Assembly (NCBI GenBank): GCA_902774655.1
Contig: CACYJD010000001.1
Span: forward strand, 1-45,595
Length of the DNA: 45,595 nt
Reading direction: 5' to 3'
From: an uncultured Erysipelotrichaceae bacterium
GTDB taxonomy: Bacteria > Bacillota_I > Bacilli_A > RFN20 > CAG-826
Under the pieces are notes generated by a model, which worked only from the letters and a program-made list of their open reading frames with translations, searched no databases and was not told the origin of the DNA. Positions 1 to 38,220 of the stretch are shown piece by piece; within the stretch, counting starts at the first letter, position 1, and the number at the start of each line of letters is the position of its first letter. The position numbers and the translations under genes were made by a program.

Positions 1-11
1 CCTTGCCGCAT
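1..11 (-). CDS. 5' tip of a minus-strand CDS that runs off the left edge (product unknown)
   Basis: The minus strand reads AAAAGGAGTAAAAAATATG CGG CAA GG. The ATG is at 11-9, with a GGAG Shine-Dalgarno a suitable distance upstream. Confidence 0.3.
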
Positions 12-209
12 ATTTTTTACTCCTTTTCTGGAATTGAATTATTATATCACATCAGTTTTAGGAAAACAAGTATCTAAAAGAAATTTTTCTTCCCCTTATT
101 CTCTTTTCGCAGGAATCTATCTGAAGCGTGGACGCGGTATAAAACAAAGAGCCACCTAAGAGAACGTCCTCCACCAATATTAAATTTAAAGTCCACGCTA
201 TAGACCTAA

Positions 210-446
210 TTAATCTAAAGAATTCTGATATTCAATCTCTTTAACACGTAATTCATTAATATCCATTTTTAGGACATCTGCTATTTTTACCATTGTTCTG
301 AATGATACAAGCTTTCCAATCCTACCATTTTCAATTCTAGAATAGTGTTGATGACATATTCCTAATTCTGCCGCTACTCGATATTGAGAGTAGCCCAACT
401 GAATTCTCCTTTCACTTAAATAGATTCGTAATTTTTGATATTTCAT
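210..446 (-). CDS. XRE/Cro-CI family helix-turn-helix transcriptional regulator (78 aa)
   Basis: HTH_3-type signature LGYSQYRVAAELGICHQHYSRIENG. The ATG is at 446; the track start at 449 is a GTG. No Shine-Dalgarno lies upstream. Confidence 0.8.
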   Translation of the reverse strand: MKYQKLRIYLSERRIQLGYSQYRVAAELGICHQHYSRIENGRIGKLVSFRTMVKIADVLKMDINELRVKEIEYQNSLD

Positions 447-486
447 CACATATATTTATTCAATAATTATCGAAGATAATCAACAA
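447..486 (-). promoter_or_regulatory. Candidate sigma-A type promoter with an embedded 16-bp quasi-palindrome (operator) for the XRE gene; the transcript may be leaderless
   Basis: The minus strand reads TTGATT, then 17 nt, then AATAAA, then 8 nt, then ATG. The spacer contains TTCGATAA/TTATTGAA (plus-strand 459-474), a 7/8 inverted repeat. There is no GGAG before the ATG. Confidence 0.35.
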
Positions 487-527
487 AAAAATCCCTGCTA
501 CTCACCATTTTGGCTTTCACAGGGATT
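485..527 (-). terminator. Rho-independent terminator after the holin-like gene
   Basis: The minus strand reads AATCCCTG, then a 22-nt loop, then CAGGGATT, followed by TTTTTT (arms at 520-527 and 490-497). Confidence 0.6.
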
Positions 528-530
528 AAT

Positions 531-908
531 TTAATTCTTTAGTTTGTAAATAGATGCTTCGATTTGGTTACTTATCCAATTTGATAAATCGCCATAATTA
601 GCAACAATCCAGCTCTTCAACTCTTCCGTCATTTCAGAAAGGATGATGGCTTTCGCTTTATTAAGGGCAACTAGCTGTTCGTCTTTTCCAAAACCACCAC
701 TAGCCTTAAGGCTCTCTACATAAGTTTGGAATGTAGTTCGTACAGCATTCGTCACTATTTCAGTGGCATGAGCGAATAGCTTTTGAGCTTTCTCATCTTT
801 TATCTTGGTGTTTAACCATTGAGTCAGCTTAACACCTAAGAAAGATATCAGAGGCAAGACAATGCAAGTCACCACCGTTGCTAAAACATTTAATAGAATT
901 TGATTCAT
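531..908 (-). CDS. Holin-like membrane protein (LL-H-type architecture: one N-terminal TM helix plus a helical cytoplasmic part)
   Basis: 125 aa with the N-terminal hydrophobic segment LLNVLATVVTCIVLPLISFLGV. It is the last gene of the late operon and has a strong RBS (AGGAGGAACCAATATG). Confidence 0.55.
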   Translation of the reverse strand: MNQILLNVLATVVTCIVLPLISFLGVKLTQWLNTKIKDEKAQKLFAHATEIVTNAVRTTFQTYVESLKASGGFGKDEQLVALNKAKAIILSEMTEELKSWIVANYGDLSNWISNQIEASIYKLKN

Positions 909-919
909 ATTGGTTCCTC

Positions 920-1189
920 CTATTTATGAGCTTGTTTATTTATGTGGTCCTCAATTTCAGTAATTGCTACTGTGACTGGACCATCGCATCCTTGTTCTTT
1001 TAGTCCTTTTAGACACGCTAGGACACCTTTGGTGAGAATTGATTGTTCTTCCTTAATCTCTCGGATTTCAACGTCATTCTTGTCTCTTTTCATTAACCAT
1101 TTGAAAAAGCCAAATAGAATTCCAAAGATGACACCTAAGGCAGTAATAACTGATGCGGTTGTGATGATGATTTCAACTACGTGGCTCAT
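920..1189 (-). CDS. Small N-terminally anchored membrane protein, putative holin or lysis accessory protein
   Basis: 89 aa. A TM segment (IIITTASVITALGVIFGILFGFF) is followed by a charged helical tail. RBS is AAGGAGGAAGAATCATG. Position is in the lysis cassette. Confidence 0.5.
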   Translation of the reverse strand: MSHVVEIIITTASVITALGVIFGILFGFFKWLMKRDKNDVEIREIKEEQSILTKGVLACLKGLKEQGCDGPVTVAITEIEDHINKQAHK

Positions 1190-1827
1190 GATTCTTCCTC
1201 CTTATAGAGCGAAAGCAAGTAAGAAAAAATCTCCTTTAGTTTTGGGAGATGTTCTTCTATGTTCAATTTTGTTTTAAGGTCTTTGGCGAGTTCATAGTTC
1301 TCTTTTGAGAAATAATATTCAAACTTACCTGTTTCCTTATAGTGCCTAATAAGTGATTCGACTCGGTATAAATGGTAAAGGCTCTTCTCTTCTTTATAGT
1401 TTTCAAGTCTGATTCCAAAGTATGCAATCAAGCGATAGAGCCAATCTTTGAAGTGCCTTTTAAAGTCAATATAAAGGAATTCATCTATATTGTCTTTAAT
1501 CGATTCATCGACATAAACGAGATTCTCTTTTGCGAGCAAAGTGTTATCAAGCCAGCAAAGGAAATACGTAAGACATCCATTATCGAAATTTTTAAGCCTT
1601 TCAAAATAGCTTCTACCAAAGGTAAAGAAGTCACAATCATCTGTTTTAACTACGTTGCAGCTATCATAGCCGTCAATAACGACTGTAAAGTCTTTATCAC
1701 TCTCGTCTTCGCTTAAGCCAAATATGGATGAGCCACATCTATAGCAGAGAAGGACTTTGTTTGGTGAAAATAACTTATCTAATAACTCTTGCATATTTTG
1801 GTTGGTTCCCCCTTGAATCTTCGACAT
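1186..1827 (-). CDS. Pol-beta superfamily nucleotidyltransferase (RlaP/YcgL-like) with a helical C-terminal domain
   Basis: Motif CGSSIFGLSEDESDKDF matches G-S-x(9-13)-D-x-D. Its stop overlaps the next start (ATGA). The start is uncertain: M1 at 1827 or M12 at 1794, and both overlap the upstream gene. Confidence 0.6.
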   Translation of the reverse strand: MSKIQGGTNQNMQELLDKLFSPNKVLLCYRCGSSIFGLSEDESDKDFTVVIDGYDSCNVVKTDDCDFFTFGRSYFERLKNFDNGCLTYFLCWLDNTLLAKENLVYVDESIKDNIDEFLYIDFKRHFKDWLYRLIAYFGIRLENYKEEKSLYHLYRVESLIRHYKETGKFEYYFSKENYELAKDLKTKLNIEEHLPKLKEIFSYLLSLYKEEES

Positions 1828-2551
1828 AAAGTTTGCTGCTAGTTAATTGACATGAAAGCGTGCAGTCTTGACCGTTATAACGATAATGGACGATACCGCC
1901 ACTACCACCAACTGAAGCACCGCAGAATATGACATTAGTGCCACCTACATAAAGAGAGATGATTCCGTCATATGCATTTGATGTTGTAATTCCATCAAAA
2001 ACATAACAATGTCCATAGGACAAAGTAGACCAGCCATCGTAAACAGGACCATAACGCGAACTAGCTTCACTTAAAACTGCTGTTCCTTTTTCATTTATTT
2101 TTGTTTGATCATTTTTAATTGAAGGTGGGTCATAGGTTGAATCTAATGTTATCGAGGTTGATGTTTTTGTGTATCTACAGAGCGGGAACTCATAAATGAG
2201 GCCACCATTCATCAAGTCGTTTTGAGTAAGAGTTGGATAAGCAGAACTGGCTTCTTTTTTCTCTAAAGTAATCGTGTTATTACCTAGGTCAATCTTGATG
2301 ATTACATAGCCATAAGCAGAGCCATCTAAAGAGACAGAAATCTTGGTACCACTTTCAACATAAATTCTTCTTCCATAAACCTGAACATATCCGTTTTGAA
2401 ATGAAATATAGTTATTACTGACAGATGCCTGACATCTACCTAAAATGCCATAAAAAATGCCGTTCACACCACTCGTTAAGAAGTGATTAATGTCGGCATC
2501 CATTTTGCTAGATACTGAAGCTGCATCAAATGTGATTTTTTGAATAGCCAT
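1775..2551 (-). CDS. Tail fibre / receptor-binding-type protein (distal tail gene)
   Basis: 258 aa and rich in beta-type residues (G/S/T/Y/N). It is the last structural gene after Dit and the Tal-like gene. RBS is GGAGGTCAACCTAATG. The call rests on position only. Confidence 0.4.
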   Translation of the reverse strand: MAIQKITFDAASVSSKMDADINHFLTSGVNGIFYGILGRCQASVSNNYISFQNGYVQVYGRRIYVESGTKISVSLDGSAYGYVIIKIDLGNNTITLEKKEASSAYPTLTQNDLMNGGLIYEFPLCRYTKTSTSITLDSTYDPPSIKNDQTKINEKGTAVLSEASSRYGPVYDGWSTLSYGHCYVFDGITTSNAYDGIISLYVGGTNVIFCGASVGGSGGIVHYRYNGQDCTLSCQLTSSKLYVEDSRGNQPKYARVIR

Positions 2552-12444: not shown

Positions 12445-14050
12445 CTAACTAATTAAATTCTCGTAGTCTGTCTTGTATCGAGTAAGGACGGTATAGGCGA
12501 TAATCAACGCCACGCATCCATCGATTCTTTTTAATTTGCTGTTTAGCTTACTAGGTTGAATGTTTCCATTAAGGTCCACTTTCGCCTGAGTATTTGCCAA
12601 ATTCCACTTTAATATCGGGTTATTATCATAGATAACTAGTTTATTTTTAAGGTCACCTTCTAGCTGTTTCATTGGTTCAGATAAGGTGTATATGCCTTGT
12701 CTAATCTTTTCCATTGTGAATCCAGCATCTTCCATTTCCTTAACCCAGTACTGAGAATTCCATGGATCGTAACCTATGAAAACCGGGCGAATGCCATACT
12801 CTCTCACCATTTGAATGAACCATTCAGTGACATGATGGAAGTCGTTTTGATTTCCGTTAGTTAAAGTGATTAATCCTTTTTTAACCCAGATGTCGTATGG
12901 AATCTTGTCCTCCTCCACTCTCTTTTTAACTAGTTCACTAGGCATAAAGAAATGTGGGAGAACGTACTTCTTGCCGTTTTTTATAATTAGCAAGACTGCA
13001 GCAGTTAGGTCTGTTGTAGAAGATAAGTCAACTCCACCAATAGCATAGCTGTCTCTAATGTCGGACATTTTATACATGGTTTCATTATTTAACTCTGCAT
13101 ACGTTAACCATGAACCGCTTTCGATTTGTTTGATATTGAAGTCCTTACAAAGCATCGTTACTTTAGTGGCTAAATCGTTTCTTGCTTTATTCATGACATC
13201 ATCGAAATAAGACTTTGTCTTGATGGTGCCTAAGCTAGGATTTGACTTTTGCCAGCTCGACGGATCGTTAAAGACTTCATCAATCGAATCTTGTGTGTAA
13301 AGCCACGGAAGGATTCTTTCGTCTTCAATCTCGCCTTTTATCATCTTTCTGACATAGGCAAGTTTGTTATCTAGAAAGCCATCAACTGTGGTTCCTTCTG
13401 TGGTAATGATGAAGATTAAAGGTTTAGACTTTTGAGTCAGTCATTTCGTGGACCTCGTCAATACATCCAACCTCGATGTTATAGCCATCTTTGTTTCTGC
13501 TTTGAGCGGAGAGCTTTTTAATCTTGTTTTTGTTCTTAGGAGAATAGATGTAGAAAATATTCTTTTTCGAACGTTTTTCGTTTCGTAGAGCTTTGCTCTG
13601 TTCACGCATGTTGTTTATTTCTTCAAAGAGGATGCTTGCCTGATCGTTCGTGTTAGATGCACAAACAATGTCGGTGCCACCACTACTTAAAAAGAATTCA
13701 GCGAGGTCAATGCCAGCAATAAATGTTGTCTTACCGTTCTTACGAGCAATGAGAAGTAAGGCTTCATTAAATCTTCTTAGACCAGTCTCTTTCATTTTGA
13801 AACCGTATGCACACTCTAAGAATGCCTTTTCCCAAAGCTCTAGGATAAATGGCTGGCCATTAAACGGTGACTTAGTGTGTTTACAAAATCTTTCAATAAA
13901 CTCAATTCTTATTTGTCCTGGTCTTTCATCATAGATGTAACGAGGATTATTCAAATCGTTTTTTAAGCGTTTTAAGACACTTTTTAGTTCTTGACCAGCA
14001 ATTACTCGCCCCGACTCTATTTCGTCGATATAGGATAGTAAAAAACTCAT
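12445..14050 (-). pseudogene. Terminase large subunit, reading frame interrupted between the ATPase and nuclease halves
   Basis: The N-terminal ORF (13424-14050) has Walker A ARKNGKTT and Walker B GCIDEVHE and then stops (TDSKV*). The +1 frame is open from 13440 down to 12445 and continues KSKPLIFIITTEG... The two frames overlap by only 17 nt, which contain an AAAA run at 13430-13433. Confidence 0.85.
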
Positions 14051-14227: not shown

Positions 14228-15703
14228 TTAATCATCCTCCCTCACAATGCTGAATGTTCTATTTGTTCCAACATTATTTGTGGAATATGTTTTGAGCTTA
14301 ACGGTTGATACTTCACCACTACTGAATGAAATAACACCTGTATCATTAATGACTTGGCCAACTGGTACAGGCATGAAGTTACCCCAAGCACTTGGAATGT
14401 AATCACCACCAGAGATATCAATCTTGAAGGTTGTATCTGAGAGGTATTCATAGGTAAAGTTAACCGCATTGGCATCAATCATAATGCAACCAAATCCAAC
14501 GCTGAATTCGAGGTCGATAGAAATTGAACTATTCTCGTAATGGAAGAACTTTCCTGCTAATGGATCGTTTGCTCCAACGATACCGATAGTCCAATTTTTA
14601 TTTGTTGCGATATCTAAGTCCTCTTCCTCTAATCTGTCATAGACAACTTGATGGATAGAGATAACTTTTGATGCCTGACCTGATAAATCCTTCAGGTTTC
14701 TAAACATTTGGATGACTGACTCTCTGGTCAACGAGGTGCAGTTACCAAAGTTAGCGTTCACGTTGAAATTACTTTGTAAAGAGATCTTAGTTAGCAACGG
14801 ACAATCCTGAATCGCTTCCATAGGGATAGCAACATTGATTGTGTTAGGGAACCAGATTTCATTTAACTGAGGACATCCCTTAACAACCGCTGTACCACCA
14901 CTAAAACTTTGGAGTCTATCAGGTAAATAGAGCTTCTTAAGTTTTGGAATGTTCCAGAATGCATAGGATGTGAGAGATCTTAAATTTGATTCAGCACCAA
15001 AGGTGACATACTCGCATCCACATCCACTTAAGTTATATTGGCCCCAAGTTGATAACGAAGATGGGAAGTTAATATCATCTAAGTTTTCAATACGATAAAG
15101 AGCATAGTTTTCCAAAGTCGCTAACTGACTACCAGGTTCGAATTCGATATGTGTGCAACCACTTAAGTAAAAAGTGTGTTGCTTAATCGTAGTCACTGTG
15201 CAAGGAACACTAACCGTGAATTCGTTTGTAGCTTCTGCTAAAAAGTTAGTGGTAATAAAACCAACACCCTCTGGTATTTCAAAGTGATCAAATGATCCTT
15301 CGACTAATTGTGAGAGCATCTTAAACTCTTCAGAAGTATGAATAATTCCTAAGTTTCCTTTAAGGACCGTGGCCACGATAGGCTCAGACGCATAGATGTA
15401 GTTAGCTGTAATCGTACTATCACTATTAGCGACTTCATCACATGCGACAAAGCTCATCTCCCATGCACCTTCATAAGCTGTGATGGCTTTAGGGATTTCA
15501 AACACATTATCGTGGACCCTATAGAGGTAAGTTGCTCTTGCATGGGTGAATTTTAAGTAATGATATGTACTATCAATTTCTGCATCCACTTCAAATAAGA
15601 GTTTCACTCTTTTAGATTCACGATAGACGGATATTTCAAATGGTTCTACATCTGATGTAAGCTTACCGTCTTTACCAACGTGGATATTAATTTCATATGC
15701 CAT
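14228..15703 (-). CDS. BspA-type leucine-rich-repeat protein
   Basis: 491 aa. The central part shows irregular ~22-25-aa repeats of the LRR_5/BspA style (HTFYLSGCTHIEFEP, LENYALYRIENLDDINFP, LTSYAFWNIPKLKKLYLP, AIQDCPLLTKISL). RBS is TTAGGAGGATAATTCAAATG. Confidence 0.7.
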   Translation of the reverse strand: MAYEINIHVGKDGKLTSDVEPFEISVYRESKRVKLLFEVDAEIDSTYHYLKFTHARATYLYRVHDNVFEIPKAITAYEGAWEMSFVACDEVANSDSTITANYIYASEPIVATVLKGNLGIIHTSEEFKMLSQLVEGSFDHFEIPEGVGFITTNFLAEATNEFTVSVPCTVTTIKQHTFYLSGCTHIEFEPGSQLATLENYALYRIENLDDINFPSSLSTWGQYNLSGCGCEYVTFGAESNLRSLTSYAFWNIPKLKKLYLPDRLQSFSGGTAVVKGCPQLNEIWFPNTINVAIPMEAIQDCPLLTKISLQSNFNVNANFGNCTSLTRESVIQMFRNLKDLSGQASKVISIHQVVYDRLEEEDLDIATNKNWTIGIVGANDPLAGKFFHYENSSISIDLEFSVGFGCIMIDANAVNFTYEYLSDTTFKIDISGGDYIPSAWGNFMPVPVGQVINDTGVISFSSGEVSTVKLKTYSTNNVGTNRTFSIVREDD

Positions 15704-15708: not shown

Positions 15709-16038
15709 TTATCCTCCTAAAGATTTCATAAAATTATCAAACTCATCATCTTCATCTACAGCATTTCTACCAAGGATGGAGTTGAGTGTTTTAATTACGG
15801 TTTGGTACACCGCTAAAGAAGTGAGGAAAGTTTTATAAGAAACGGTTTCTCTAAACTCACCATTTTTAACTTGGACCGCACCATAGGTTGCTACTTGTTT
15901 TTGTAGTTCATCTAACTGAACCTTTAAAAAAGCCGCTTTGTGTAGCAGCTCATCAACTAGTTTTGTTTTTGTTTCATCAACATCTTTGAATAGAGCAAGT
16001 AGTCGCTCGTATTCTTTTCGTACAGCAGTTACGTCCAC
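15709..16038 (-). CDS. Putative terminase small subunit
   Basis: 109 aa from the GTG at 16038 (RBS GGAGGAAAACTCGTG). It is helical/coiled-coil and lies between the HNH gene and the large terminase. The call rests on position and size. Confidence 0.45.
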   Translation of the reverse strand: MDVTAVRKEYERLLALFKDVDETKTKLVDELLHKAAFLKVQLDELQKQVATYGAVQVKNGEFRETVSYKTFLTSLAVYQTVIKTLNSILGRNAVDEDDEFDNFMKSLGG

Positions 16039-16163
16039 GAGTTTTCCTCCTCTAAAAATTAGTGATTTTTGAAAATTTCGGCCTCGCACATTTCTGAGGT
16101 GGGGCGCATCGGTACTTTAAAAAAGTAAAAGCACTCGACCCGGGCGGGGGTAAATTTATTTTT
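16039..16163. other. Candidate cos / packaging-recognition region
   Basis: A 125-bp spacer between HNH and terS holds two unusually GC-rich blocks, gaggtggggcgcatcgg (16097-16113) and gcactcgacccgggcggggg (16131-16150), in AT-rich DNA. Confidence 0.35.
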
Positions 16164-16454
16164 TCAGAATGGTTTTAAGTTTCCTTTGCTGTCAAACTGA
16201 CTAGCCTTCTTCTTAAAACGATCATGCTCTTTGTTGTGGCACTCTTTGCAGAGGTAGATAAGGTTGTCAGGATTAAGTGTGATGTTAGTGTCCGTGATGT
16301 TACTAGGTGTTAAGGCTATCTTATGATGGACCTCTTCCCCTATCGCACCGCAGAGTTCACACCTACCGTTGCACGCTGCTATCTTTTGCTGCCTAGCCAA
16401 GAGCCAAGCACTACTCCTATAGAAGCGGTTAATGGCAGCACACTTATTTAACAC
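16164..16454 (-). CDS. HNH endonuclease (packaging-associated)
   Basis: 96 aa. Motifs: CELCG...EVHHK...NLIYLCKECHNKEH. The GTG start overlaps the stop of the upstream gene. Confidence 0.85.
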   Translation of the reverse strand: MLNKCAAINRFYRSSAWLLARQQKIAACNGRCELCGAIGEEVHHKIALTPSNITDTNITLNPDNLIYLCKECHNKEHDRFKKKASQFDSKGNLKPF

Positions 16455-17238
16455 GAACTAAACCCCACTCACCGAACTTGCGGAAGCCACCGATGGATTT
16501 AATGTAGTTTCTAGCAATCTCAACGATTTCACTATATGGTCTACCATCAACAAATTCGTCACCAATGGCACAGCTTAGCTCAACGACCTTATTTGTCTTT
16601 TGGGCTTTTAAGAAAGCATAGATGTTTACTGATACATCAGCTTTGCTGAGGTCTTTACCATGTAAGCCACCGCCAGTGACTGAATCAGCCATATCGCTGC
16701 CCAATTTTCTATTAGTCGCTCCCGTATCCACTGCTTCGGTTCCTTGCCAATTGCCTAGTGGATTAACAACAGCCTTTTTGAAAATCTCTTTTAAATCATC
16801 CGTGTCAGCATTGCTTTGACAGATAATAAGGCGATTTTTATCTAGGACATATTTGCCATCATAAGGATAGCCGTCAAAGATGTCCTTTGCGATTTGAGTT
16901 AATTTCTTTTGCTCTTCAGTTAAAGGCACTCCACGGAATATGCCGTTATCACCGCATCTAATCTTGCCATGCTGATTTGCACTTAAGAGTGGATCTTGTG
17001 GAACTTCCCTATAATCGACTTTTACCTTATGTCCAACAATCTCGAATACGGCCTTTTTAACTTCTTTCTTATTTAATTTCACGCTTGTTTCCGCGATGAT
17101 ATGACATCTACCATGCCCAAGAAGTACTTCCACTGCTATTCGTGGATTCTTTTCTTTGCTATATGCCATATCTACCAAAGCACCTGCAATTGTGTCGCAA
17201 AGCTTATCTGGATGCTTGGGATTTACTTTTTCAAACAT
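16444..17238 (-). CDS. metK: Compact S-adenosylmethionine synthetase homologue (MetK-like, 264 aa)
   Basis: Motifs line up with E. coli MetK as I remember its sequence: KHPDKLCDTIAGALVD (GHPDKIADQISDAVLD), RCGDNGIF (GAGDQGLMF) and GGGLHGKDLSKADVS (GGGAFSGKDPSKVDRS). It is about 120 aa shorter than the 384-aa enzyme. RBS is AAAAGGAGGCAAACAATG. Confidence 0.75.
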   Translation of the reverse strand: MFEKVNPKHPDKLCDTIAGALVDMAYSKEKNPRIAVEVLLGHGRCHIIAETSVKLNKKEVKKAVFEIVGHKVKVDYREVPQDPLLSANQHGKIRCGDNGIFRGVPLTEEQKKLTQIAKDIFDGYPYDGKYVLDKNRLIICQSNADTDDLKEIFKKAVVNPLGNWQGTEAVDTGATNRKLGSDMADSVTGGGLHGKDLSKADVSVNIYAFLKAQKTNKVVELSCAIGDEFVDGRPYSEIVEIARNYIKSIGGFRKFGEWGLVRVK

Positions 17239-17265
17239 TGTTTGCCTCCTTTTTGTTAATTTTGC

Positions 17266-17296
17266 CTATACTGAATAATTTTATTATTGAGTATAG
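17266..17296. promoter_or_regulatory. 31-bp near-perfect palindrome (candidate operator) upstream of the MetK-like gene
   Basis: ctatactgaataat ttt attattgagtatag: 14-nt arms (13/14 complementary) with a 3-nt spacer. It overlaps TATACT-like -10 candidates and ends 28 nt before the start codon. Confidence 0.4.
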
Positions 17297-17392
17297 AGGT
17301 AAAAATGCCCCTAAAAATGGGGTAAAAATGCTATTTTTCATAGGTATTATTAGACTCATTGGAATATATTCCTAATGAGACAAATAATAAAA

Positions 17393-18130
17393 TCAGGCCA
17401 TGTAGATGACCGAGCCACCGAACTTATTTTCGATATAAGTTTTGATATTTTCCTGCTTTAAAGCTTCAACTAAAACACTGGTCTTTTTAGATTCTTGATT
17501 TCCGTTTTTCACAGCAATCACATTAGCCATTGTTTTAGCAATATCGGAATTCTTATCTTCAGTGATTAGGCAGCGATTCACTACTCCTGCAGATAAAGCA
17601 TAATTGCCATTAATAACTGCATATGCACAATCGCTTAACATTAATGGAATATTTTGAGCTTCAACTTGTACTAGATTAGCGGTTTGCATTCCATTTACTT
17701 TTAGTAATTCCACCGCTCTATCGTAGTTGCTCTTATCACTAGGAACCAAAACCTTATCATTTGCAGCATAAGCATCTAAGCTTTTCTTATTTCCTGAATA
17801 AATGCCCATTGGTTCAAAGTGAACATCTAACACTGAAACGAGATGCGTACCATTGCTCGCATTGAATTCATTTAAATAAGGTTTGTGTTGGAAGTAGTTA
17901 GCATCAAGCTCACCGTTTTCTAAGGCATAGTTAGGAAGGACATAATCGTTGAAGACTTTGATATCTAACTTATAGCCTTCTTTTTCAATATAACCTTTGG
18001 TTTGCTCTAGAATTAAAGCATGTGGAGTTGAACTTGCCCCCACCACAATCGTTTTACTATTTTTGTTACATCCTGCTAGCGTAATCACAGGCAAGCAGGC
18101 AAGTATGAGAAACTTTAATGTTTTATGCAT
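17393..18130 (-). CDS. metQ: MetQ/NlpA-family methionine-binding lipoprotein
   Basis: 245 aa from the ATG at 18130 (RBS GGAGGTGCTTATG). Signal peptide has the lipobox LAGC. Family motifs: VVGASSTPHA and DANYFQHKPYL. Confidence 0.85.
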   Translation of the reverse strand: MHKTLKFLILACLPVITLAGCNKNSKTIVVGASSTPHALILEQTKGYIEKEGYKLDIKVFNDYVLPNYALENGELDANYFQHKPYLNEFNASNGTHLVSVLDVHFEPMGIYSGNKKSLDAYAANDKVLVPSDKSNYDRAVELLKVNGMQTANLVQVEAQNIPLMLSDCAYAVINGNYALSAGVVNRCLITEDKNSDIAKTMANVIAVKNGNQESKKTSVLVEALKQENIKTYIENKFGGSVIYMA

Positions 18131-18762
18131 AAGCACCTCCATAAGAGAAATCTGACTAGCAGATTATTAATGATTTGAATTAAGCAAACGATGATTACGA
18201 TAATCACCACGCTTTGTGCGATGATATTCCAATTAAATCTTTGGAAGCCATAAACAATGGCGTAGTTTCCTAAACCACCACCGCCAACAACACCGGCCAT
18301 CGCGCTATAACCGATAATGTTTATCAAGGTGATGCCAATCGCATTAACTAAATAAGGCAACTTACATGCCCATTTAATCCTAACGATAATCTTCAGATTA
18401 CTTGCTCCATCAATCTTTGCAGCTTCTATGACATAACCCGGAATCTCAGATAAGATTTCTTCAATTAGCCTAGCTTCAAACGGAATGGCACAGATTGTTA
18501 AAGGCACTATCATCGCTGTCGTTCCAATTGCCGTTCCGATTAATGCTCTGGTCACTGGAAACATAAAAACAACAAGAAGAATAAAAGGTATGCTCCTACC
18601 CACATCGATAATTCGGTTAAGGATAAAGTTAATAACCCTATTTGGGAATAATCCCCCTGGTCTAGTCTCGCTGACCATTGAGCCAATCGGCATCGCAATA
18701 ATCCAAGATATGATTAAGGAAACACACGACATGTATAAAGTTTCAATCGTTGCATCTAACAT
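18115..18762 (-). CDS. metI: MetI-type methionine ABC transporter permease
   Basis: 215 aa from the ATG at 18762 (RBS AAAGGAGATAGATGACATG). It is polytopic, with an EAA-like segment (IEAAKIDGAS). It overlaps the metQ start by 16 nt. Confidence 0.8.
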   Translation of the reverse strand: MLDATIETLYMSCVSLIISWIIAMPIGSMVSETRPGGLFPNRVINFILNRIIDVGRSIPFILLVVFMFPVTRALIGTAIGTTAMIVPLTICAIPFEARLIEEILSEIPGYVIEAAKIDGASNLKIIVRIKWACKLPYLVNAIGITLINIIGYSAMAGVVGGGGLGNYAIVYGFQRFNWNIIAQSVVIIVIIVCLIQIINNLLVRFLLWRCLCIKH

Positions 18763-18827
18763 GTCATCTATCTCCTTTACAAAGTAAAAGACACCATTTA
18801 GGTGCCTATGTTCAGCTTTGGTTATTT

Positions 18828-19262
18828 CTACCAAGCTGTATTAAGCCATTTAACGAGTTCTCTAGATGAGTCTGTCGCAAATAATGGTTCATCCCAGTGG
18901 CCTTCGCCATCAGGAGTTCTTCCATAAACCGCATATCTGGTCTTGTTCCAGCAGCAGTCTATTTGGATGGTGAACATCACGTTACCTGTTTCGATATCCG
19001 CAAAGCGGAAGTCATCATAAAGTGGTCCATTTAAAGGGCAGTTGTTTTTAAACCAGACATACCAGTTTTCTAGGTCTACCTTTCCGCCACGCTTGACTTG
19101 CTTAATGATGTTACCCATCTTTTTGGTCTTGTTGGCTAAGCTTGAGTCTTTGCAGAACCAGTCATACCAACCTGCCTTGATTTGGGTTTTAACATCATCG
19201 GCATCAAAATTGCCTTCCATGAATTCATCAATCCATCGGAATAATCTTAATCTGTCCATCAT
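18828..19262 (-). CDS. Hypothetical phage protein (144 aa, Trp/Cys-rich)
   Basis: Coding-quality ORF in an operon with its neighbours. No motif was recognised (WYDWFC, CCWNK). Confidence 0.55.
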   Translation of the reverse strand: MMDRLRLFRWIDEFMEGNFDADDVKTQIKAGWYDWFCKDSSLANKTKKMGNIIKQVKRGGKVDLENWYVWFKNNCPLNGPLYDDFRFADIETGNVMFTIQIDCCWNKTRYAVYGRTPDGEGHWDEPLFATDSSRELVKWLNTAW

Positions 19263-19513
19263 TACCAGCCACGCTCCTTTCTTTCAAATTCAAAGCAGGA
19301 CTCACTATACCTTTTCCAAATTGGATTGGCTTCGATGTCCTTATCTTCAAAAACGCGGATGCCTGCTCGTACTTCGTTAAAGTAGTTAAGCAAAGCTTCA
19401 TCACCTTTTTCTCTCCACACTTCTTTACCGTGATGGAGATAAACATATTCGTGAGTTTTAGGCGCATAGCCCAGTTGGTTCTCTTTGCGCTTGCCTTCAG
19501 TGACTAAGTACAT
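19262..19513 (-). CDS. Hypothetical phage protein (83 aa)
   Basis: The ATG at 19513 overlaps the upstream stop (TAATG). No motif was recognised. Confidence 0.5.
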   Translation of the reverse strand: MYLVTEGKRKENQLGYAPKTHEYVYLHHGKEVWREKGDEALLNYFNEVRAGIRVFEDKDIEANPIWKRYSESCFEFERKERGW

Positions 19514-19947: not shown

Positions 19948-21234
19948 TTATTTTAAGAAGTCATCATTGTCCAAGACTTCAAAATCCTTGATGGTTTCAA
20001 GCGGAATCTTCTCGCCATTTCTTAATAAAAAACACCCTTCATACGAACCGGTGTTCCTTAAGTATCTTTTAATGATTACATCCACATACTTAGTGTCAAG
20101 TTCCATCAAGTAAGCAGTTCTTTCAATTTGCTCACAGGCAATTAATGTTGTACCACTACCACCAAAGAGATCTAAGACAAGCTCACCTCTACGGCTGCTG
20201 TTTTCAATAAGTTTGGTTACGAGTGGTATTGGTTTCATTGTTGGATGGAGTTCAGAAGATTGTGGTCTATCGTATTCAAGAATAGTCGTTTGAGTTCTAT
20301 CCTCTACAAAGTAATGGGCCGCACCTTCTTTCCAACCAAACAAAATTGGTTCATGCATGTAATGATATGGACATCTTCCTAAAACAAAGTTGTTCTTTTT
20401 CCAAATTAAACATTCGGATAATTTAAACCCTGCTTCTTTAAAAGCACCACGAAAGTTATATCCTTCAGTGTCTGCATGGAAGACATAAATCGAACCACCA
20501 GGTTTGACGTTGTTATAGAAGTTCACCATGACCTTATCAAGGAATTCCCTGAAGGATGAATCATCCATGTCGTCGTTAAGAATGGTTCTATCAGTCATAC
20601 CACAGTCATATCCACCACGTTCCTTATATTGTTGACCCTTTTTGCCTATGGCAACATTATAAGGCGGGTCGGTTTCAATTAAGTCGGCTAGCTTACCATC
20701 CATTAAAACATCAACGTCTTCTTTTACAGTGGAATCACCACACATGACTCTATGCTTTCCTAAGACGTAAACGTCGCCTTTAAGTGAATATGGGTTTTCA
20801 GGTAAAGCTTCATCTTCATCAAAATTATCATCTTTAGGTTTGTCTTGGAGTTTATCCATTAAATCTTCAAATCCAAATTGAAGAAGATCCATATCGATGT
20901 TTTTGATTTCAACGGCTAACTTACCCATATCCCATTTGGCAATTTCAGCTGTTTTATTATCAGCAAGTCTTAAAGCCTTAACTTCATCTTCTGATAAGTC
21001 GTCAACCACAATACATGGGACCTCTTTTAATCCTAATTTTTTAGATGCAAGTAAACGTGTATGACCTGCGATAATTACATTATGAGAATCGATGAGAATA
21101 GGATTTCTAAAGCCAAAGGCTTTGATTGAATTCGCTACCGCATCAACTGCCTCATCATTAAATCTTGGGTTGTTGTCATAAGCGATAAGTTCATCAATCT
21201 TCTTTATTACTATCTTCTGACTCGACATTGGCAT
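19948..21234 (-). CDS. ParB-like N-terminal domain fused to an N6/N4 DNA methyltransferase (phage orphan MTase)
   Basis: 428 aa. The N-terminus (IDELIAYDNNPR...AGHTRLLA) is ParB/Srx-like. The MTase motifs are IETDPPYNV and a C-terminal DLFGGSGTTLIA. Confidence 0.85.
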   Translation of the reverse strand: MPMSSQKIVIKKIDELIAYDNNPRFNDEAVDAVANSIKAFGFRNPILIDSHNVIIAGHTRLLASKKLGLKEVPCIVVDDLSEDEVKALRLADNKTAEIAKWDMGKLAVEIKNIDMDLLQFGFEDLMDKLQDKPKDDNFDEDEALPENPYSLKGDVYVLGKHRVMCGDSTVKEDVDVLMDGKLADLIETDPPYNVAIGKKGQQYKERGGYDCGMTDRTILNDDMDDSSFREFLDKVMVNFYNNVKPGGSIYVFHADTEGYNFRGAFKEAGFKLSECLIWKKNNFVLGRCPYHYMHEPILFGWKEGAAHYFVEDRTQTTILEYDRPQSSELHPTMKPIPLVTKLIENSSRRGELVLDLFGGSGTTLIACEQIERTAYLMELDTKYVDVIIKRYLRNTGSYEGCFLLRNGEKIPLETIKDFEVLDNDDFLK

Positions 21235-30614: not shown

Positions 30615-32291
30615 TTAATTATTCTTTGCTCTGCCCCATTGATCACCGAACAATGCCCCATCTCCAGAATGAAGTTGAATTACTTGTTTTTCTATAGCAA
30701 TATTTGTTATCGTTCCATCTGGATTAACTTCTTTATATCTATCAGGGTTTTCAGCAACAGCAAATATCTGTCTTTCAGTTTTTTGGGCATATAATTTAAA
30801 TAAATCGCGAGCAGTAATATCTTCGATATTAGTAAATAGAATCGAGTCGTGTCCAAAGACTGGTAGTTTTGTATTCTCCATTATTGCCAAATCCAACAAA
30901 CAAACTGCTTTATACCTAGTTCCAGTTCCTGTATCACCTGGAGTGTAGAAAGCATAACTTTTAAGTTCGTTAAATTTGAAAATTGGAGCAGCTACTCTTT
31001 TATCATCTTTTTCTCTAATGTGGGTATTGTTTTCCCTCATTGATGAATTTAGTTTGTTTTCGATTGTTGTCGTATATGTTTCTGTTAATTGCACTAAGGT
31101 TTTTTCTGCTTCTTTATATCCTTTTAATGCACTTTCGCTATCTTCAAAATTTTTGATGGCGGTTCCAAGCCTATCTATTTCCTTTGATAAATATTCGCGT
31201 TCTTTAACATACGATTCGGAAACAGTAGGCACAGTCTTATATTCTTCTAATTGAGTATTAATTTCAGCAATTCTTGCATCAATTAAAGAAATTAAATTCT
31301 CAACTTCTTTATTTGCTTCAATGATATCTTCCAACAAATATCCATAGACATCTTTATGGAATTTTTCATATTTTTTAATTTCAGGAATCTTGACATCTTC
31401 AAAGAACTCTTTTAAAGCACCATACTTCAATTGATACTCTTCTTCAGATAGTAATTCATCATTATCATTAATATCAGTTAATTTCTTTTCTAACGTTTTT
31501 CTTCTTCTTTGGAGTTTTACTTTTTCTTTGTTAAGACGCGTTTTTTCGGTGGCTTCTAATGCCTCTTGGTCATTTGAATTATGGATATTGTCATAGTCTA
31601 ATTGTTCTAATTGCTTACGCAAATCAGCTAATTGAGCCACCATTTTTGCTTTTTCTTCTGCACTTATAGCAATTGGAGCAATATTATGTTTTCTAATGTT
31701 GTCGTATCCCTTTTTTAAATCTTTTTTAGAATCGTAATCTGCCTTTGTAGATTCTATCGGTTTAAACATTCCGAACATCTTTAATAAAACGCTCATTCCA
31801 TCATAGTCAGATTCCCTAATATGAGCGTTAATTGGTCTCCATTCGTTATAGTTTTTCTTATTATAAATTCTAAAATATGGTCCAACCCATTCTCTAAACG
31901 ATAGGTCTTCACCGTTTTTTAGACCATAGAAATTTACAAGGTCTTCCTTAAACTGTTTATTGGTTATTGTGTTTCTTGTCTTATATTCGCTGTCACAAAT
32001 GTCCACTCTTTCTGGGTTTTGTGTGTTTCTTTTATAAAATCTTGATTTGCCATCGAATTCAAATTCAAAGCAAATATCGTGATGGCCCACATGTTCAATA
32101 GTTTCTTTTTCTTTTTGTGGATAATCATCTCCGCCAAAACAAAAATCAATAATCATCAACAAAGTTGATTTACCTATAGAGTTTGTTGCTCCTTTTTCAC
32201 CGAGGATTACATTTAAACCATTATGAAATCTAATTGGTTCTCTAGGAACGCCATGATCAATAAACTTATCGCATTTAATTGTTTTTAACAT
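30615..32291 (-). CDS. Coiled-coil ABC/SMC-like ATPase (DUF2326-like; ATPase of an ABC-three-component-type system)
   Basis: 558 aa from the ATG at 32291. N-terminal Walker A GEKGATNSIGKST; a ~250-aa K/E-rich coiled coil in the middle; a C-terminal Walker B-like LPVFGHDS. Confidence 0.65.
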   Translation of the reverse strand: MLKTIKCDKFIDHGVPREPIRFHNGLNVILGEKGATNSIGKSTLLMIIDFCFGGDDYPQKEKETIEHVGHHDICFEFEFDGKSRFYKRNTQNPERVDICDSEYKTRNTITNKQFKEDLVNFYGLKNGEDLSFREWVGPYFRIYNKKNYNEWRPINAHIRESDYDGMSVLLKMFGMFKPIESTKADYDSKKDLKKGYDNIRKHNIAPIAISAEEKAKMVAQLADLRKQLEQLDYDNIHNSNDQEALEATEKTRLNKEKVKLQRRRKTLEKKLTDINDNDELLSEEEYQLKYGALKEFFEDVKIPEIKKYEKFHKDVYGYLLEDIIEANKEVENLISLIDARIAEINTQLEEYKTVPTVSESYVKEREYLSKEIDRLGTAIKNFEDSESALKGYKEAEKTLVQLTETYTTTIENKLNSSMRENNTHIREKDDKRVAAPIFKFNELKSYAFYTPGDTGTGTRYKAVCLLDLAIMENTKLPVFGHDSILFTNIEDITARDLFKLYAQKTERQIFAVAENPDRYKEVNPDGTITNIAIEKQVIQLHSGDGALFGDQWGRAKNN

Positions 32292-32505
32292 AATGAACAA
32301 CCCCTTCCAATAGCTCAATTTTTCCTAAAACAAATAGACAATCGAGCGTATCTATAAATTCGCCTCGGCTCTCGAAAGACGATTTTGTTTTGTTGTAGAG
32401 TTCTTTAACAGAATAATCACAGTCTTCTAAAGGCTTTAAAATGACAGGAAACTTCGATAAGCAACTGTTTTTGTAACTAATAAATTTACTCGGAAGTTTC
32501 ATCAC
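32275..32505 (-). CDS. 76-aa helical protein, putative middle component of the ABC-3C-type system
   Basis: It overlaps both neighbours (by 20 nt and 17 nt), which indicates translational coupling. No catalytic motif was seen. Confidence 0.5.
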   Translation of the reverse strand: MMKLPSKFISYKNSCLSKFPVILKPLEDCDYSVKELYNKTKSSFESRGEFIDTLDCLFVLGKIELLEGVVHYVKNN

Positions 32506-33718
32506 TCAACACCTCACAATGAACTAAAAAATAACATGTAATTAAATAGCATGTTTCAGGATCCTTCTGTCCGTCAGGCAAACAATCATTTAACTTTGTC
32601 GCGATTTGGTTTATTACTTCATCTTCACTCAAGTGAAGACTGTAAAAATAATGGTCAGACCAATTCTTTATTTTTTCGCCAAATACAGTTGACCCATTTT
32701 GAGTCTTTTCTTCATAAGAAGTAAAGCAACTATCAATATCGTAATAATCATCAGCAATTCTCTTTTTGATTCTGTTTCTAGAATAAGGAATTGTGTTTTT
32801 CATTTTTTCATCTATTCGTTTGGCTTCCGTAGTTAATGGCTTTTTATCTCCATCGAAATGGCCTAATAAATAATCAGCGACCCTTGTTATTCTTTCCTTA
32901 AAGAATGTTTTATCCATTGTTTTGTCGATGGTCGAATATTTAATCGCTTCTCTTTTTGTCTTGTATAAAAGTTTATAGTCTTCAACATTTGGACTACCGT
33001 GATAAAGTCTATAGTGTCTAGCACAAACCGCTATTTTGTTTGATGAGGCTTCTACATCACTTGGCTTATAAATGCCACTAGTTTGAAAAGTAAACTTTGT
33101 TGCTTCATCAATTGGATTAGGATAAATATGCACTATTTCATAGTTTTTAATGTGCCTACCTTTATATTCAGGAGCAAGTATATCTTCACAAAACGGGCAT
33201 CTTCCTTTCATTTCTTCAATAAAGTCATAATCAAGAGCATCTGGTTCATTATCAACATGAAGAGGTCCTTCTATCGCATTACGATAAAAATCACAGAATT
33301 CTTCAGTTACATCAATTTGTGTAAAAAACTTTTCACAAGCAATCGAACATGCGTGGCAAAAAACATCAAAGTCCGCTGCGTATGATTCAGCTATATTTAA
33401 ATCCTGGTATGCAAAAGCAATGGCCCTTTTGTTAATTGCCCTAACAAAGAAACTAAAAAGAGCAATAAAATCTATAGGCTGTGGAATTTGCGATAGCAAA
33501 CGAGGATTGATTAGTTTCGGGTCGCTAGCCCTACCAAGATCGCCATCAAATAGTTTTCTGCAATTGCTGTCTTCTTCGTTTCTATAATCTAAATATTTGG
33601 GATGTTTTAGAGCTTTGAGAAGACTACCAACAAAAACAGCTTTATTTTCATAAGCTGGAGATAATGATTTTTTTATGCCGTGGCAGAACTCACAAAATTT
33701 GATAACAATGTCCTCCAA
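32486..33718 (-). CDS. Putative effector of the ABC-3C-type system with an HNH-like nuclease motif
   Basis: 410 aa. Residues ~174-240 read CPFCEDIL...YEIVHIYPNP...NKIAVCARHYRLYH (CxxC...H...N...H...H). The start is a TTG at 33718 with no clear RBS, so the start is uncertain. Confidence 0.5.
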   Translation of the reverse strand: MEDIVIKFCEFCHGIKKSLSPAYENKAVFVGSLLKALKHPKYLDYRNEEDSNCRKLFDGDLGRASDPKLINPRLLSQIPQPIDFIALFSFFVRAINKRAIAFAYQDLNIAESYAADFDVFCHACSIACEKFFTQIDVTEEFCDFYRNAIEGPLHVDNEPDALDYDFIEEMKGRCPFCEDILAPEYKGRHIKNYEIVHIYPNPIDEATKFTFQTSGIYKPSDVEASSNKIAVCARHYRLYHGSPNVEDYKLLYKTKREAIKYSTIDKTMDKTFFKERITRVADYLLGHFDGDKKPLTTEAKRIDEKMKNTIPYSRNRIKKRIADDYYDIDSCFTSYEEKTQNGSTVFGEKIKNWSDHYFYSLHLSEDEVINQIATKLNDCLPDGQKDPETCYLITCYFLVHCEVLSDETSE

Positions 33719-33909
33719 ATAATAAAGTCCTATGAAAGTCCGATTGGTCTCATTGTCAGAGACCTTTTTTAATTTTCTAACGCTATGAAATGCTATTAAC
33801 TTTAGTTAGGCAAACGACTTTAAATCTAATTATAGCATAAAGATTTGTAGGATTAATGCCTAAATATCCAGCACGCGTGTTGGGAGCATAAGAAAGGAGA
33901 ATTCAAGTT

Positions 33910-34047
33910 ATGGAGTCTCAAAACCCATTTCTAAACAAATATCCACCTTCCTTCGCTTCCGAAGAAGAAGACTGGAATAACTATCGTGATGAAGAACTTC
34001 TTCATGATGCTCAACTTAAAGAGCGTGAAAAGCTAAAGAAGGACTAA
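33910..34047 (+). CDS. Small acidic ORF (45 aa), hypothetical
   Basis: Not in the supplied track (below its cutoff). AAGGAGA RBS lies 8 nt before the ATG. Translation: MESQNPFLNKYPPSFASEEEDWNNYRDEELLHDAQLKEREKLKKD. Confidence 0.35.
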   Translation: MESQNPFLNKYPPSFASEEEDWNNYRDEELLHDAQLKEREKLKKD

Positions 34048-34285
34048 TCACAAACGTCACCTTTTACGCCACTGATTATCTTGGCGTGGAGGGGCAACAA
34101 TTAAGGTGATTGATGAAAGGCATGCCGCTTATGGACATCAACCACCTCTCTACATAGGCAATGACCATCCATAAGGTCGTTCCGATTCAAAACATAGCGA
34201 GGCAACTCACTACTTGAATTCGAACGTTTCTTTAAGCATGGTCGGTTTCATTCATGAGTACCTCGCGGAAAGCATAGGTACTTAA

Positions 34286-34867
34286 ATGAAAATTACTGTC
34301 AATTTAGAAACTGAAGGATTAGTTGAAAACGATAATATCTTCACTCCTTCACCAACAAGAACAGCCGCCATTACTGTTAAAGAACTTAATGGCAAAACTA
34401 TTTATCTTACTCCTAAAGAAGCTGATTCCTATAGGAGACTTCAACAACGCTTATGGCAACAATCACAAAGGGAGGGAAGATGCATAGTCTTCTCAGAACG
34501 TTATGGTGCTAAAGTATGCCGTGGCAACTGCTCCCAATGCGAAAAAGCACGTGACCGTTATCCATTATCAATTGAAGCTTTGACTGAAAAAATAGGCCAC
34601 GAGCCTAATACTGGCGAGTTTGCTGATAGGCAAGAAGCTGAAGATCCAAGAAAAATCTATGAGCGCAAAGAAACAATGATGTTTATCAAAAAGGCCATGG
34701 ATGAAATTGGAGCTAATGTCTTCGATATCTGTTGGAGAAGAATTGTCTTGGAAGAGTCAATTCAAATTATTGCTGATGATTATGGCATCAACAGAGAAAC
34801 GCTTCGCAAGATGATTATAAAATGGACAAAAATACTCCAAGATAAACTTGCTTGGCTTAAAAACTAA
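34286..34867 (+). CDS. Sigma-70 region-4-like / HTH DNA-binding protein with a Cys cluster (putative regulator)
   Basis: 193 aa. The C-terminus ESIQIIADDYGINRETLRKMIIKW is HTH-like. The central part has CRGNCSQCEK. The RBS is weak. Confidence 0.45.
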   Translation: MKITVNLETEGLVENDNIFTPSPTRTAAITVKELNGKTIYLTPKEADSYRRLQQRLWQQSQREGRCIVFSERYGAKVCRGNCSQCEKARDRYPLSIEALTEKIGHEPNTGEFADRQEAEDPRKIYERKETMMFIKKAMDEIGANVFDICWRRIVLEESIQIIADDYGINRETLRKMIIKWTKILQDKLAWLKN

Positions 34868-34875
34868 TATCAATT

Positions 34876-34920
34876 AAGTGGCGATTTGCAATGAAAATAC
34901 TTCAGAAAGCCACTTTTTTT
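34876..34920 (+). terminator. Possible rho-independent terminator
   Basis: AAGTGGC (34876-34882) pairs with GCCACTT (34909-34915) and is followed by a T run. The loop is long (26 nt), so this is only moderate. Confidence 0.4.
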
Positions 34921-34951
34921 AATTGAAATACATAGCGAATTATCAAAATAA

Positions 34952-36349: not shown

Positions 36350-36488
36350 AAAAATAGTCTATCAAAGTTGAGTGTTCTTTTACAGCACGCATTTACGCAC
36401 GTATATAACAATAAATTATCTAAAGAATTTATTTGATCTTTACATTTTTTCCTTGATCCTGTATTATCTTTAGTGTAGACTTAAGCAT

Positions 36489-37742: not shown

Positions 37743-37767
37743 TTAATTAGCTAATCCTCTTATTATT

Positions 37768-38220
37768 TTATTCTGTGAAGCTTTTTTCTATCCATAAAAG
37801 CCATTTTTTTACAGTTTGATATCTTCTTTCATAGAGCTCATCACTGTATTGCGGATATTCTGCTTTGATTATGTCTATGACTTCTTCCTTTTCCAATTTG
37901 ACTCCATATACTTTTTCTGTAACATAGACTGTTCCAAATACTTTATCGGACATCAATAACCTTATAAGTTCTATTCTTTGCTTCGTTGGAGAAAGGTTTC
38001 TAACATAACATCCCACCTCAGTGAAATGCTTATCTTTAGAAATAAGCCCTAAATACATCGCCGCAGAAAGATAGTACATCACTTGTCTATCGGTGACATT
38101 TTCCAAAACAAAGCTAATGTACTTCTTATCACTTAGTTTAGATTCGTCAGGAATATTAATTAGTGATATTACCTTTTCAAAATCATCGGCTTGAGGGAAT
38201 GGTATATCATTTCTTTCCAT
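37768..38220 (-). CDS. 150-aa protein of unknown function, third gene of the DGQHR-Dam operon (possibly a winged-helix DNA-binding protein)
   Basis: It overlaps the Dam-like gene by 14 nt. It is predicted helical and shows no catalytic motif. Confidence 0.5.
   Translation of the reverse strand: MERNDIPFPQADDFEKVISLINIPDESKLSDKKYISFVLENVTDRQVMYYLSAAMYLGLISKDKHFTEVGCYVRNLSPTKQRIELIRLLMSDKVFGTVYVTEKVYGVKLEKEEVIDIIKAEYPQYSDELYERRYQTVKKWLLWIEKSFTE

Follow-up and report, generated by a model that had tools for sequence, protein, structure and literature searches.

Why would a temperate phage carry the permease and binding protein of a methionine importer beside a homolog of S-adenosylmethionine (SAM) synthetase, without the ATPase that powers such importers? 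The locus that raises this question lies in a 45,595-nucleotide (nt) stretch of contig CACYJD010000001.1 (assembly GCA_902774655.1, an uncultured Erysipelotrichaceae bacterium), referred to at its whole length as the window. Three consecutive prophage genes, metI', metQ', and metK' (primes denote the phage versions), encode a methionine-type ATP-binding cassette (ABC) permease, a methionine-binding lipoprotein, and a compact protein with the fold of the SAM synthetase MetK. The metIQ-metK' unit is a conserved phage cargo under purifying selection and qualifies as a set of auxiliary metabolic genes (AMGs). As to function, we consider it moderately probable that the unit is an auxiliary metabolic cassette that would import methionine through a borrowed host MetN ATPase, convert it to SAM, and thereby supply phage DNA methylation.

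Recurrence of the metIQ-metK' unit in phage genomes

Forty-one loci from metagenomes, IMG/VR, and metagenome-assembled genomes (MAGs) encode a MetQ at least 50% identical to that of the window and define the phage clade discussed here; the MetQ search found the unit in 17 IMG/VR loci, further metagenome contigs, and 14 MAG contigs. metI lies directly 5' of metQ in 40 of the 41 loci, the remaining one being cut by a contig end, and metK' follows directly 3' of metQ in 31 of the 34 loci with room for it. An identical MetK' is encoded on six contigs of independent assemblies, five of which span the whole cassette. Median pairwise ratios of nonsynonymous to synonymous substitution rates (dN/dS) are 0.063 for MetI, 0.11 for MetQ, and 0.106 for MetK', with 0.09 for the phage ParB-methyltransferase and 0.07 for a phage leucine-rich repeat (LRR) protein as comparison, values that are approximate because dS (1.3-1.9) is near saturation.

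Two phage backbones carry the unit. Type A, that of the window, has the order ParB-methyltransferase ... metI-metQ-metK'-HNH-TerS-LRR-TerL, and type B has metI-metQ-metK'-ParB-methyltransferase-TerL. Between the two types, TerL is ~30% and the ParB-methyltransferase 43-45% identical, whereas MetI reaches 79-85% and MetQ 74-84%. Because this similarity persists despite the divergence of the backbones, sequence comparison indicates that the metIQ pair has been exchanged between phages, each time landing immediately upstream of the resident metK'. The type B MetK' is ~70% identical to that of the window, as are the MetK' proteins of phages lacking metIQ.

Individual loci vary around this theme. 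One type-A backbone (L175) lacks metIQ; in L037, a canonical-type MetK stands after metIQ in place of metK'; in L036, an extra gene separates metQ from metK'; and in L032 a distant metIQ (46% and 51% identical) abuts a ParB-methyltransferase and a Dcm-type (C5-cytosine) methyltransferase, with no MetK. As judged from gene content, these variants tie metIQ to SAM production and use, and not to a structural or lysogeny function. The goat-rumen Bacilli MAG RGIG3315 contains four contigs with phage metIQ (L040, L043, L044, and L045), and on three of these, metK' is replaced after metQ by other small genes, one of them for a PNPOx-like protein.

The original prediction, drawn from the sequence of the window by itself, had taken the three genes for phage cargo between the replication and HNH/terminase genes, and the recurrence of the unit under purifying selection bears this out; the co-occurrence of metK and metIQ, which it had suggested looking for in phage databases, is seen in IMG/VR. 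It had also allowed that metI and metQ might be host genes split by two separate insertions. Such trapping between two elements, or an assembly chimera, is a general risk in metagenome assembly, and 'phage' records with metNIQ have indeed proved to be host DNA: PV200784 is host chromosome, with metNIQ beside a suf operon. Here, the same order in 41 independent loci on two backbones, within one co-oriented phage string, refutes this explanation, as does the distance of phage MetQ from chromosomal versions. In 185,579 species genomes, the MetQ proteins that rank next after the clade come from ordinary chromosomal genes, none above 47% identity, and the phage MetI/MetQ clade as a whole is at most 47-49% identical to any chromosomal homolog sampled. 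A nucleotide search with the 8-kb region against 50,697 phage records gave no match. The metQ and metI matches obtained from phage records with tblastn are at most 48% identical and lie in records that contain host DNA, and were rejected as true phage metIQ.

Absence of MetN

No MetN is encoded in the window, according to a six-frame motif scan and Pfam, as the original prediction had noted; its only ABC-type ATPases are OppD/OppF-like host genes at 42801-45391. The absence extends to the clade. With an ATPase defined as an open reading frame (ORF) containing Walker A and LSGGQ-type motifs, an ABC ATPase is found within 5 kb in 0 of the 41 phage-clade loci, compared with 43 of 48 chromosomal metQ loci having at least 3 kb on each side. 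The chromosomal loci with an ATPase are nearly always ordered metN-metI-metQ. The window spans the phage from its holin/helix-turn-helix (HTH) end to the tRNA at the host flank, which makes a metN at another position of this phage unlikely.

MetI' and MetQ' retain transporter features

MetI' matches Pfam BPD_transp_1 (E=7e-14) and aligns over its full length with the chromosomal and E. coli proteins, retaining the EAA-x3-G coupling motif (IEAAKIDGAS). Against the NCBIfam MetI model NF008049, it covers profile positions 10-213 of 217 and scores 179.3 bits, below the cutoff of 212. The segment after the coupling helix has diverged from KVLLPEA to IKWACKxP, altering the 'I-x-LP' part.

This divergence, together with the lack of an ATPase in every phage copy, would be compatible with a MetI'Q' pair that does not transport but competes for host MetN and so reduces the methionine uptake of the host, or that persists as a decaying hitch-hiker. 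We hold this to be highly improbable, as dN/dS values of 0.06-0.11 over deep divergence rule out decay and blocking methionine uptake would be senseless beside a methionine-requiring SAM synthetase.

Two further observations concern MetI. Phage MetI proteins share a conserved extra C-terminal tail (…LLWRCLCIKH) that is absent from chromosomal MetI and overlaps the metQ start; it may be constrained by this overlap or be a clade-specific C-terminal motif with two cysteines. The region 18115-18834 matches positions 341-529 of the 582-position phrog_6743 in PHROGs, which suggests that fused or adjacent ATPase-permease proteins, phage or host-derived, exist in some (pro)phage data sets.

MetQ' belongs to Lipoprotein_9 (PF03180; E=1e-55, 188.6 bits against a cutoff of 27), and its signal peptide ends in the lipobox LAGC. 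It falls under the NCBIfam subfamily cutoffs (NF008285, 102.7 against 374 bits; TIGR00363, 100 against 228.85 bits). In N. meningitidis MetQ, methionine is contacted by Y81, F98, H100, Y103, R156, N213, and N238 (PMC6739813). MetQ' presents all seven methionine-contacting residues of the N. meningitidis and E. coli proteins, as Y63, F80, H82, Y85, R138, N174, and N203, and these are invariant across 36 phage-clade members. The AlphaFold2 model (predicted local distance difference test score, 83.6) finds MetQ structures as its top Foldseek matches, led by the R. gnavus lipoprotein 4ib2 (47% identity) and including MetQ in a MetNI complex.

By sequence comparison, phage MetQ is a divergent clade marked by a 20-amino-acid (aa) deletion, corresponding to E. 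coli residues 155-174 and common to the whole phage clade, the distant L032 included. The tether is short as well, with ~6 residues between the lipidated cysteine and the first strand compared with 10-35 in chromosomal Gram-positive homologs. Given this deletion and the short tether, the surface lipoprotein MetQ' (with MetI') might instead serve superinfection exclusion, masking a host methionine transporter that related phages use as receptor; if the host has no cell wall, a weak inference, lipoproteins would be likely receptors. The invariance of the seven methionine-binding residues makes this very unlikely, as does the constant pairing of metQ' with a strongly constrained permease and the position of metIQ, always adjoining metK or a methyltransferase and never lysogeny genes.

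MetK' is a miniaturized MetK

At 264 aa, compared with 384 aa for E. coli MetK, MetK' belongs to phrog_1569 (E=1e-66) and contains the N-terminal domain PF00438 (S-AdoMet_synt_N, with the HPDK motif; residues 3-70, 47.7 bits against a cutoff of 33.1). Pfam finds no match in MetK' to the central and C-terminal MetK domains PF02772 and PF02773, and the full-length equivalog TIGR01034 scores only 45.1 bits against a cutoff of 309.4. Profile alignment with hhalign places residues 3-205 opposite residues 8-276 of E. coli MetK (probability 91%, 29% identity). In this alignment, H9, D11, K12, E37, D97, and W164 stand opposite E. coli H14, D16, K17, E42, D118, and F230 (mature numbering), and D171, R177, K178, K195, K199, and D201 opposite D238, R244, K245, K265, K269, and D271. 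The E. coli residues are those we take to be catalytic or ligand-binding, and all twelve of their MetK' counterparts are invariant in 40 family members. E. coli K165 is left unaligned by hhalign; its equivalent is probably K129 in an invariant DGKY.

The original prediction had named loss of active-site residues on alignment as evidence against a MetK; they are retained. Its HPDK motif is borne out too, but the GGGxxxGKD spacing is wrong: the P-loop reads GGGLHGKDLSKAD, with two residues between GGG and GKD, not three. The predicted shortening of ~120 aa is correct, and the question of which subdomains were lost has a different answer from a single missing block. The AlphaFold2 model (predicted template modeling score, 0.81) comprises three beta-alpha-beta-beta-alpha(-beta) repeats, with low confidence in the P-loop region, and the shortening is spread over loops and helices of all three pseudo-repeats plus ~50 aa of the C-terminal part. 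Foldseek neighbors of the model are MetK enzymes only (probability 1.0, E=2e-13, query-normalized TM score 0.6-0.7), with nothing significant in the viral BFVD library. Since the trimming touches every repeat and the predicted fold is that of MetK, MetK' is, on the model, a miniaturized MetK and not a fragment.

SAM synthetase activity thus appears likely as read from sequence and model; it is put no more firmly because MetK' fails the full-length equivalog and a limited literature search found no biochemical assay of any compact MetK member. These same two facts, together with the single recognizable Pfam domain, the ~120 trimmed residues, and the low-confidence P-loop, would suit a MetK fold with altered chemistry, acting on other nucleotide or thioether substrates, or with a regulatory or binding role. 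We consider this improbable, given that the catalytic and ligand residues mapped from the E. coli enzyme are all retained and invariant, that a canonical-type MetK takes the place of MetK' in L037, and that the gene is linked to SAM-using methyltransferases.

Compact MetK is common in phages, and metIQ is the new part

The original prediction had treated a SAM-making phage gene, and a compact MetK in particular, as unusual; this premise does not hold. IMG/VR contains at least 595 compact-MetK loci, the protein clusters of the family number in the thousands, and in a protein-database search with MetK' all 8,000 of the 8,000 scored candidates were significant. The 120 highest-ranking relatives, at 69-91% identity, mostly have 260-279 aa (one has 357 aa). 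MetK' matches 37 deposited phages, among them Ca. Heliusvirales, Streptococcus Javan prophages, and Gardnerella phage vB_Gva_AB1, in which the protein is annotated as SAM synthetase; 30 phage records cover at least 80% of the query. SAM synthetase (K00789) has been reported in 58.9% of Ca. Heliusvirales genomes, with a proposed anti-restriction-modification role (PMC11283538). The MetK of S. agalactiae prophage 12/111phiA, ~135 aa shorter than that of E. coli, has been studied genetically and altered lysogen phenotypes (PMC8223999); it represents a separate, more distant subgroup, ~28% identical to MetK'. The Heliusvirales, Javan, and Gardnerella phage proteins are 60-71% identical to MetK' and share its neighborhood of SNF2, DUF1492, HNH, small terminase, and ParB-methyltransferase genes.

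Synteny was counted in the 78 best IMG/VR relatives of MetK'. The ParB-methyltransferase lies within 5 kb of metK' in 76 of them, and in 64 its start overlaps the metK' stop, an arrangement also seen in the deposited phages. This supports, on the genomic side, the predicted tie between MetK' and methyltransferases. In the window, this typical phrog_1569 synteny is lost: the ParB-methyltransferase sits 2.7 kb upstream of metK' with no overlap, and metK' overlaps the HNH gene instead and is preceded by metI-metQ. By sequence comparison, this order is a lineage-specific rearrangement in which the methyltransferase moved upstream. The predicted coupling of metK' to the packaging operon is therefore real as an overlap but secondary, the usual partner being the ParB-methyltransferase.

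What is new is thus metIQ, located just upstream of metK or a methyltransferase and present in only 4 of the 78 best relatives. A limited literature search found no published report of phage metQ or metI (K02072/K02073) as AMGs.

Organization of the cassette and its expression

All genes of the cassette and their neighbors lie on the minus strand in window coordinates. In the direction of transcription, the features are as follows.

19948..21234, minus strand: ParB-N6/N4 DNA methyltransferase, a presumed SAM consumer (ParB_N and N6_N4_Mtase in Pfam; phrog_498, E=2e-155)
19262-18828, minus strand: 144-aa gene 5' of metI
18789..18807, minus strand: small candidate terminator-like hairpin between the 144-aa gene and metI, from a consensus scan only
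18115..18762, minus strand: metI', methionine-type ABC permease, 215 aa, full length; ATG at 18762, ribosome-binding site (RBS) AAGGAGA
17393..18130, minus strand: metQ', methionine-binding lipoprotein, 245 aa, lipobox LAGC; ATG at 18130, RBS GGAGGT
17239..17392, minus strand: metQ-metK' spacer, 154 nt, with stable hairpins (RNA fold z = -3.3), sub-lineage-specific
16444..17238, minus strand: metK', compact MetK-fold protein, 264 aa, presumed SAM synthetase (phrog_1569, PF00438); strong RBS
16164..16454, minus strand: HNH endonuclease gene of the packaging module, 96 aa (Pfam HNH, E=4e-7; phrog_119, E=1e-16)

The 215-aa MetI, the LAGC lipoprotein, the 154-bp spacer, and the 264-aa MetK homolog are all located where the original prediction had placed them. 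The best metQ start, at 18130, overlaps the 3' end of metI, and the HNH GTG start (16454) overlaps the metK' stop (16446-16444) by 11 nt, an overlap that had been predicted and that occurs in all type-A relatives. The spacer shrinks to ~10-15 nt in the relatives L011 and L013, which suggests a short insertion or a regulatory element particular to this lineage. On the 5' side, the cassette is flanked by co-oriented genes for PolA, a D5-type primase, an SNF2 helicase, a DUF1492 regulator, a small-terminase-like protein, and the ParB-N6/N4 methyltransferase; on the 3' side, co-oriented genes encode the HNH protein, a small protein, an LRR_5 protein, TerL, portal, protease, capsid, tail proteins, and holin. 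No SAM, T-box, or other riboswitch was found with Rfam, searched over the whole window at gathering thresholds and over 16000-19400 at E up to 1.

This layout bears on the main rival explanation, lysogenic conversion, in which a cassette expressed from the prophage would help a methionine-auxotrophic, reduced-genome host to scavenge methionine and synthesize SAM, with the lysogen as the beneficiary and not lytic DNA methylation. In favor of this, the phage is temperate and has integrated beside a tRNA, its relatives reside in uncultured rumen 'Bacilli' whose oversized Opp proteins suggest a Mollicutes-like and probably auxotrophic lifestyle, and a prophage MetK changed the phenotypes of S. agalactiae lysogens (PMC8223999). 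Weak terminator-like hairpins before metI and after metQ would also favor this reading. The cassette, however, lies inside the same-strand string from replication to packaging, away from the lysogeny module; a consensus scan found no promoter-like site directly 5' of metI; and the 10-15-nt metQ-metK' gap in relatives, like the overlaps of metK' with methyltransferase or HNH genes, connects it to lytic genes. On this evidence, lysogenic conversion is unlikely, although it is the alternative we take most seriously.

Proposed mechanism

The auxiliary metabolic cassette that we favor would work as follows. MetQ', lipid-anchored on a short tether, would capture external methionine, and MetI' would form the membrane channel. 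Because no phage copy encodes an ATPase, the MetI' dimer would have to dock on the host MetN ATPase dimer, which would drive uptake. MetK' would then convert the imported methionine and ATP to SAM. The ParB-methyltransferase and further methyltransferases of the phage would spend this SAM on replicated phage DNA before packaging; the timing of expression that this scheme needs, like each of its steps, is what we infer.

In Firmicutes, metNIQ and metK are normally under SAM riboswitches. With no SAM or T-box riboswitch, the phage cassette would escape the feedback that shuts off methionine uptake and SAM synthesis. In E. coli MetNI, internal methionine trans-inhibits MetN; rapid conversion of methionine to SAM would keep internal methionine low and so relieve this inhibition. 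The full proposal, namely that a phage permease and binding protein use host MetN in a riboswitch-free line from methionine to SAM to DNA methylation, with metIQ passed between unrelated backbones, is one we advance tentatively, as plausible but somewhat short of probable. In small methionine-auxotrophic hosts, we speculate, methionine import would set the ceiling on SAM.

Several points weigh against this reading. To the near-saturated dS, the divergence after the MetI' coupling helix, the low equivalog score of MetK', and the lack of an assay of its family in the literature searched must be added that phage MetI and MetQ are closer to Lachnospiraceae and Eggerthellaceae versions than to those of Bacilli/Erysipelotrichales, so their compatibility with a Bacilli MetN is only assumed. 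An extra MetI' would bring no net gain if host MetI already saturates host MetN, and a site-specific methyltransferase would need little SAM. Hypermethylation with high SAM demand stays a guess, since the M.EcoGII-like non-specific type considered for the ParB-methyltransferase was set aside: M.EcoGII has no ParB domain, and the papers offer no link.

Known systems offer partial parallels. MsmK/MsiK 'multitask' ABC ATPases energize several ATPase-less sugar importers in Gram-positive bacteria. Like the phage pair, these importers are permease and binding-protein operons run on an ATPase encoded elsewhere; they differ in being chromosomal CUT1 sugar importers, and the sharing of MetN with phage MetI would be analogous. 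Cyanophage PstS integrates into the host phosphate ABC transporter PstCAB (bioRxiv 10.1101/2021.07.20.453049), so that the phage gives part of an ABC importer and the host the rest, raising uptake of a nutrient for phage DNA. In the window, the phage would give both binding protein and permease and the host only the ATPase, the nutrient would be methionine, and the next metabolic enzyme is included in the cassette. Relative to the bacterial MetNIQ of E. coli and N. meningitidis (PMC6233128, PMC6739813, PMC8416018), MetI' and MetQ' are homologous and alike in fold, lipobox, methionine-binding residues, and EAA motif, but the phage set has neither metN nor riboswitch, MetQ' is without 20 residues and the long tether, and both proteins fall below the NCBIfam family cutoffs and form their separate clade. 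Phage T3 SAM lyase (bioRxiv 10.1101/2023.02.27.530186) likewise manipulates the host SAM pool in the contest with restriction-type defenses, in the opposite direction: T3 destroys SAM and inhibits MetK to disarm SAM-dependent defenses, whereas the window cassette would make SAM for self-methylation.

Host and other features of the window

Related prophages reside in MAGs of uncultured rumen 'Bacilli' and Erysipelotrichaceae. The host flank at 41811-45391 comprises a tRNA, NUDIX, DUF3899, and OppD/OppF-like ATPase genes, the latter with insertions. An uninterrupted host contig (L198) ends right after NUDIX and encodes very large Opp proteins (OppA, 858 aa; OppC, 908 aa; OppD, 714 aa). Greatly enlarged Opp proteins are typical of Mollicutes-like lineages. 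Together, these features suggest integration beside the tRNA in a Mollicutes-like host.

At the opposite end, window positions 1-2551 include a holin gene (531-908) and an HTH gene (210-449), with no recognizable endolysin domain in the neighboring ORFs; the left edge of the window coincides, to within a few hundred bases, with the ends of several independent assemblies. In the TerL region (12445-14050), a 35-bp gap around 13425 leaves two ORFs of 208 aa and 299 aa, compared with an intact 546-aa TerL in L033, L005, and L019. In the near-identical scaffold L004, 10 N occupy the exact position of the gap, so the apparent frameshift is probably an assembly artifact and not the mark of a dead prophage.

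Within the packaging module, between the small-terminase-like gene and TerL, positions 14228-15703 on the minus strand encode a 491-aa BspA-type LRR_5 protein, where a repeat protein of the surface type is unexpected; type-A relatives conserve it, and its dN/dS of 0.07 denotes purifying selection. A defense-type island occupies 30615-41313, between the replication genes and the tRNA, and holds DUF2326 and CTD11 proteins (ABC-3C-like), a MutH/Sau3AI-like nuclease with a C5-cytosine methylase, a Dam-type methylase, and a 755-aa DndB-domain protein.

Implications

Phage SAM synthetase genes are common in gut phages and have been treated as a line in AMG tables. The cassette joins such a gene to substrate import upstream and DNA methyltransferases downstream, which yields a testable hypothesis at the level of a pathway. 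The compact MetK (264 aa) and MetQ (245 aa) are natural minimal versions of well-studied proteins and could be of interest to enzymologists and for SAM-analogue synthesis with MetK.

If the phage permease does use the host ATPase, the PstS paradigm would come to include membrane subunits, transporter genes found on viral contigs would not have to be contamination, and SAM or methionine supply would be a possible control point in phage-host conflict, opposite to the SAM destruction by T3. It would then be the first ABC permease of a phage with a demonstrated host ATPase partner. In small methionine-auxotrophic hosts, the supply of methyl donor, and not only the possession of a methyltransferase, would limit the escape of phages from restriction.

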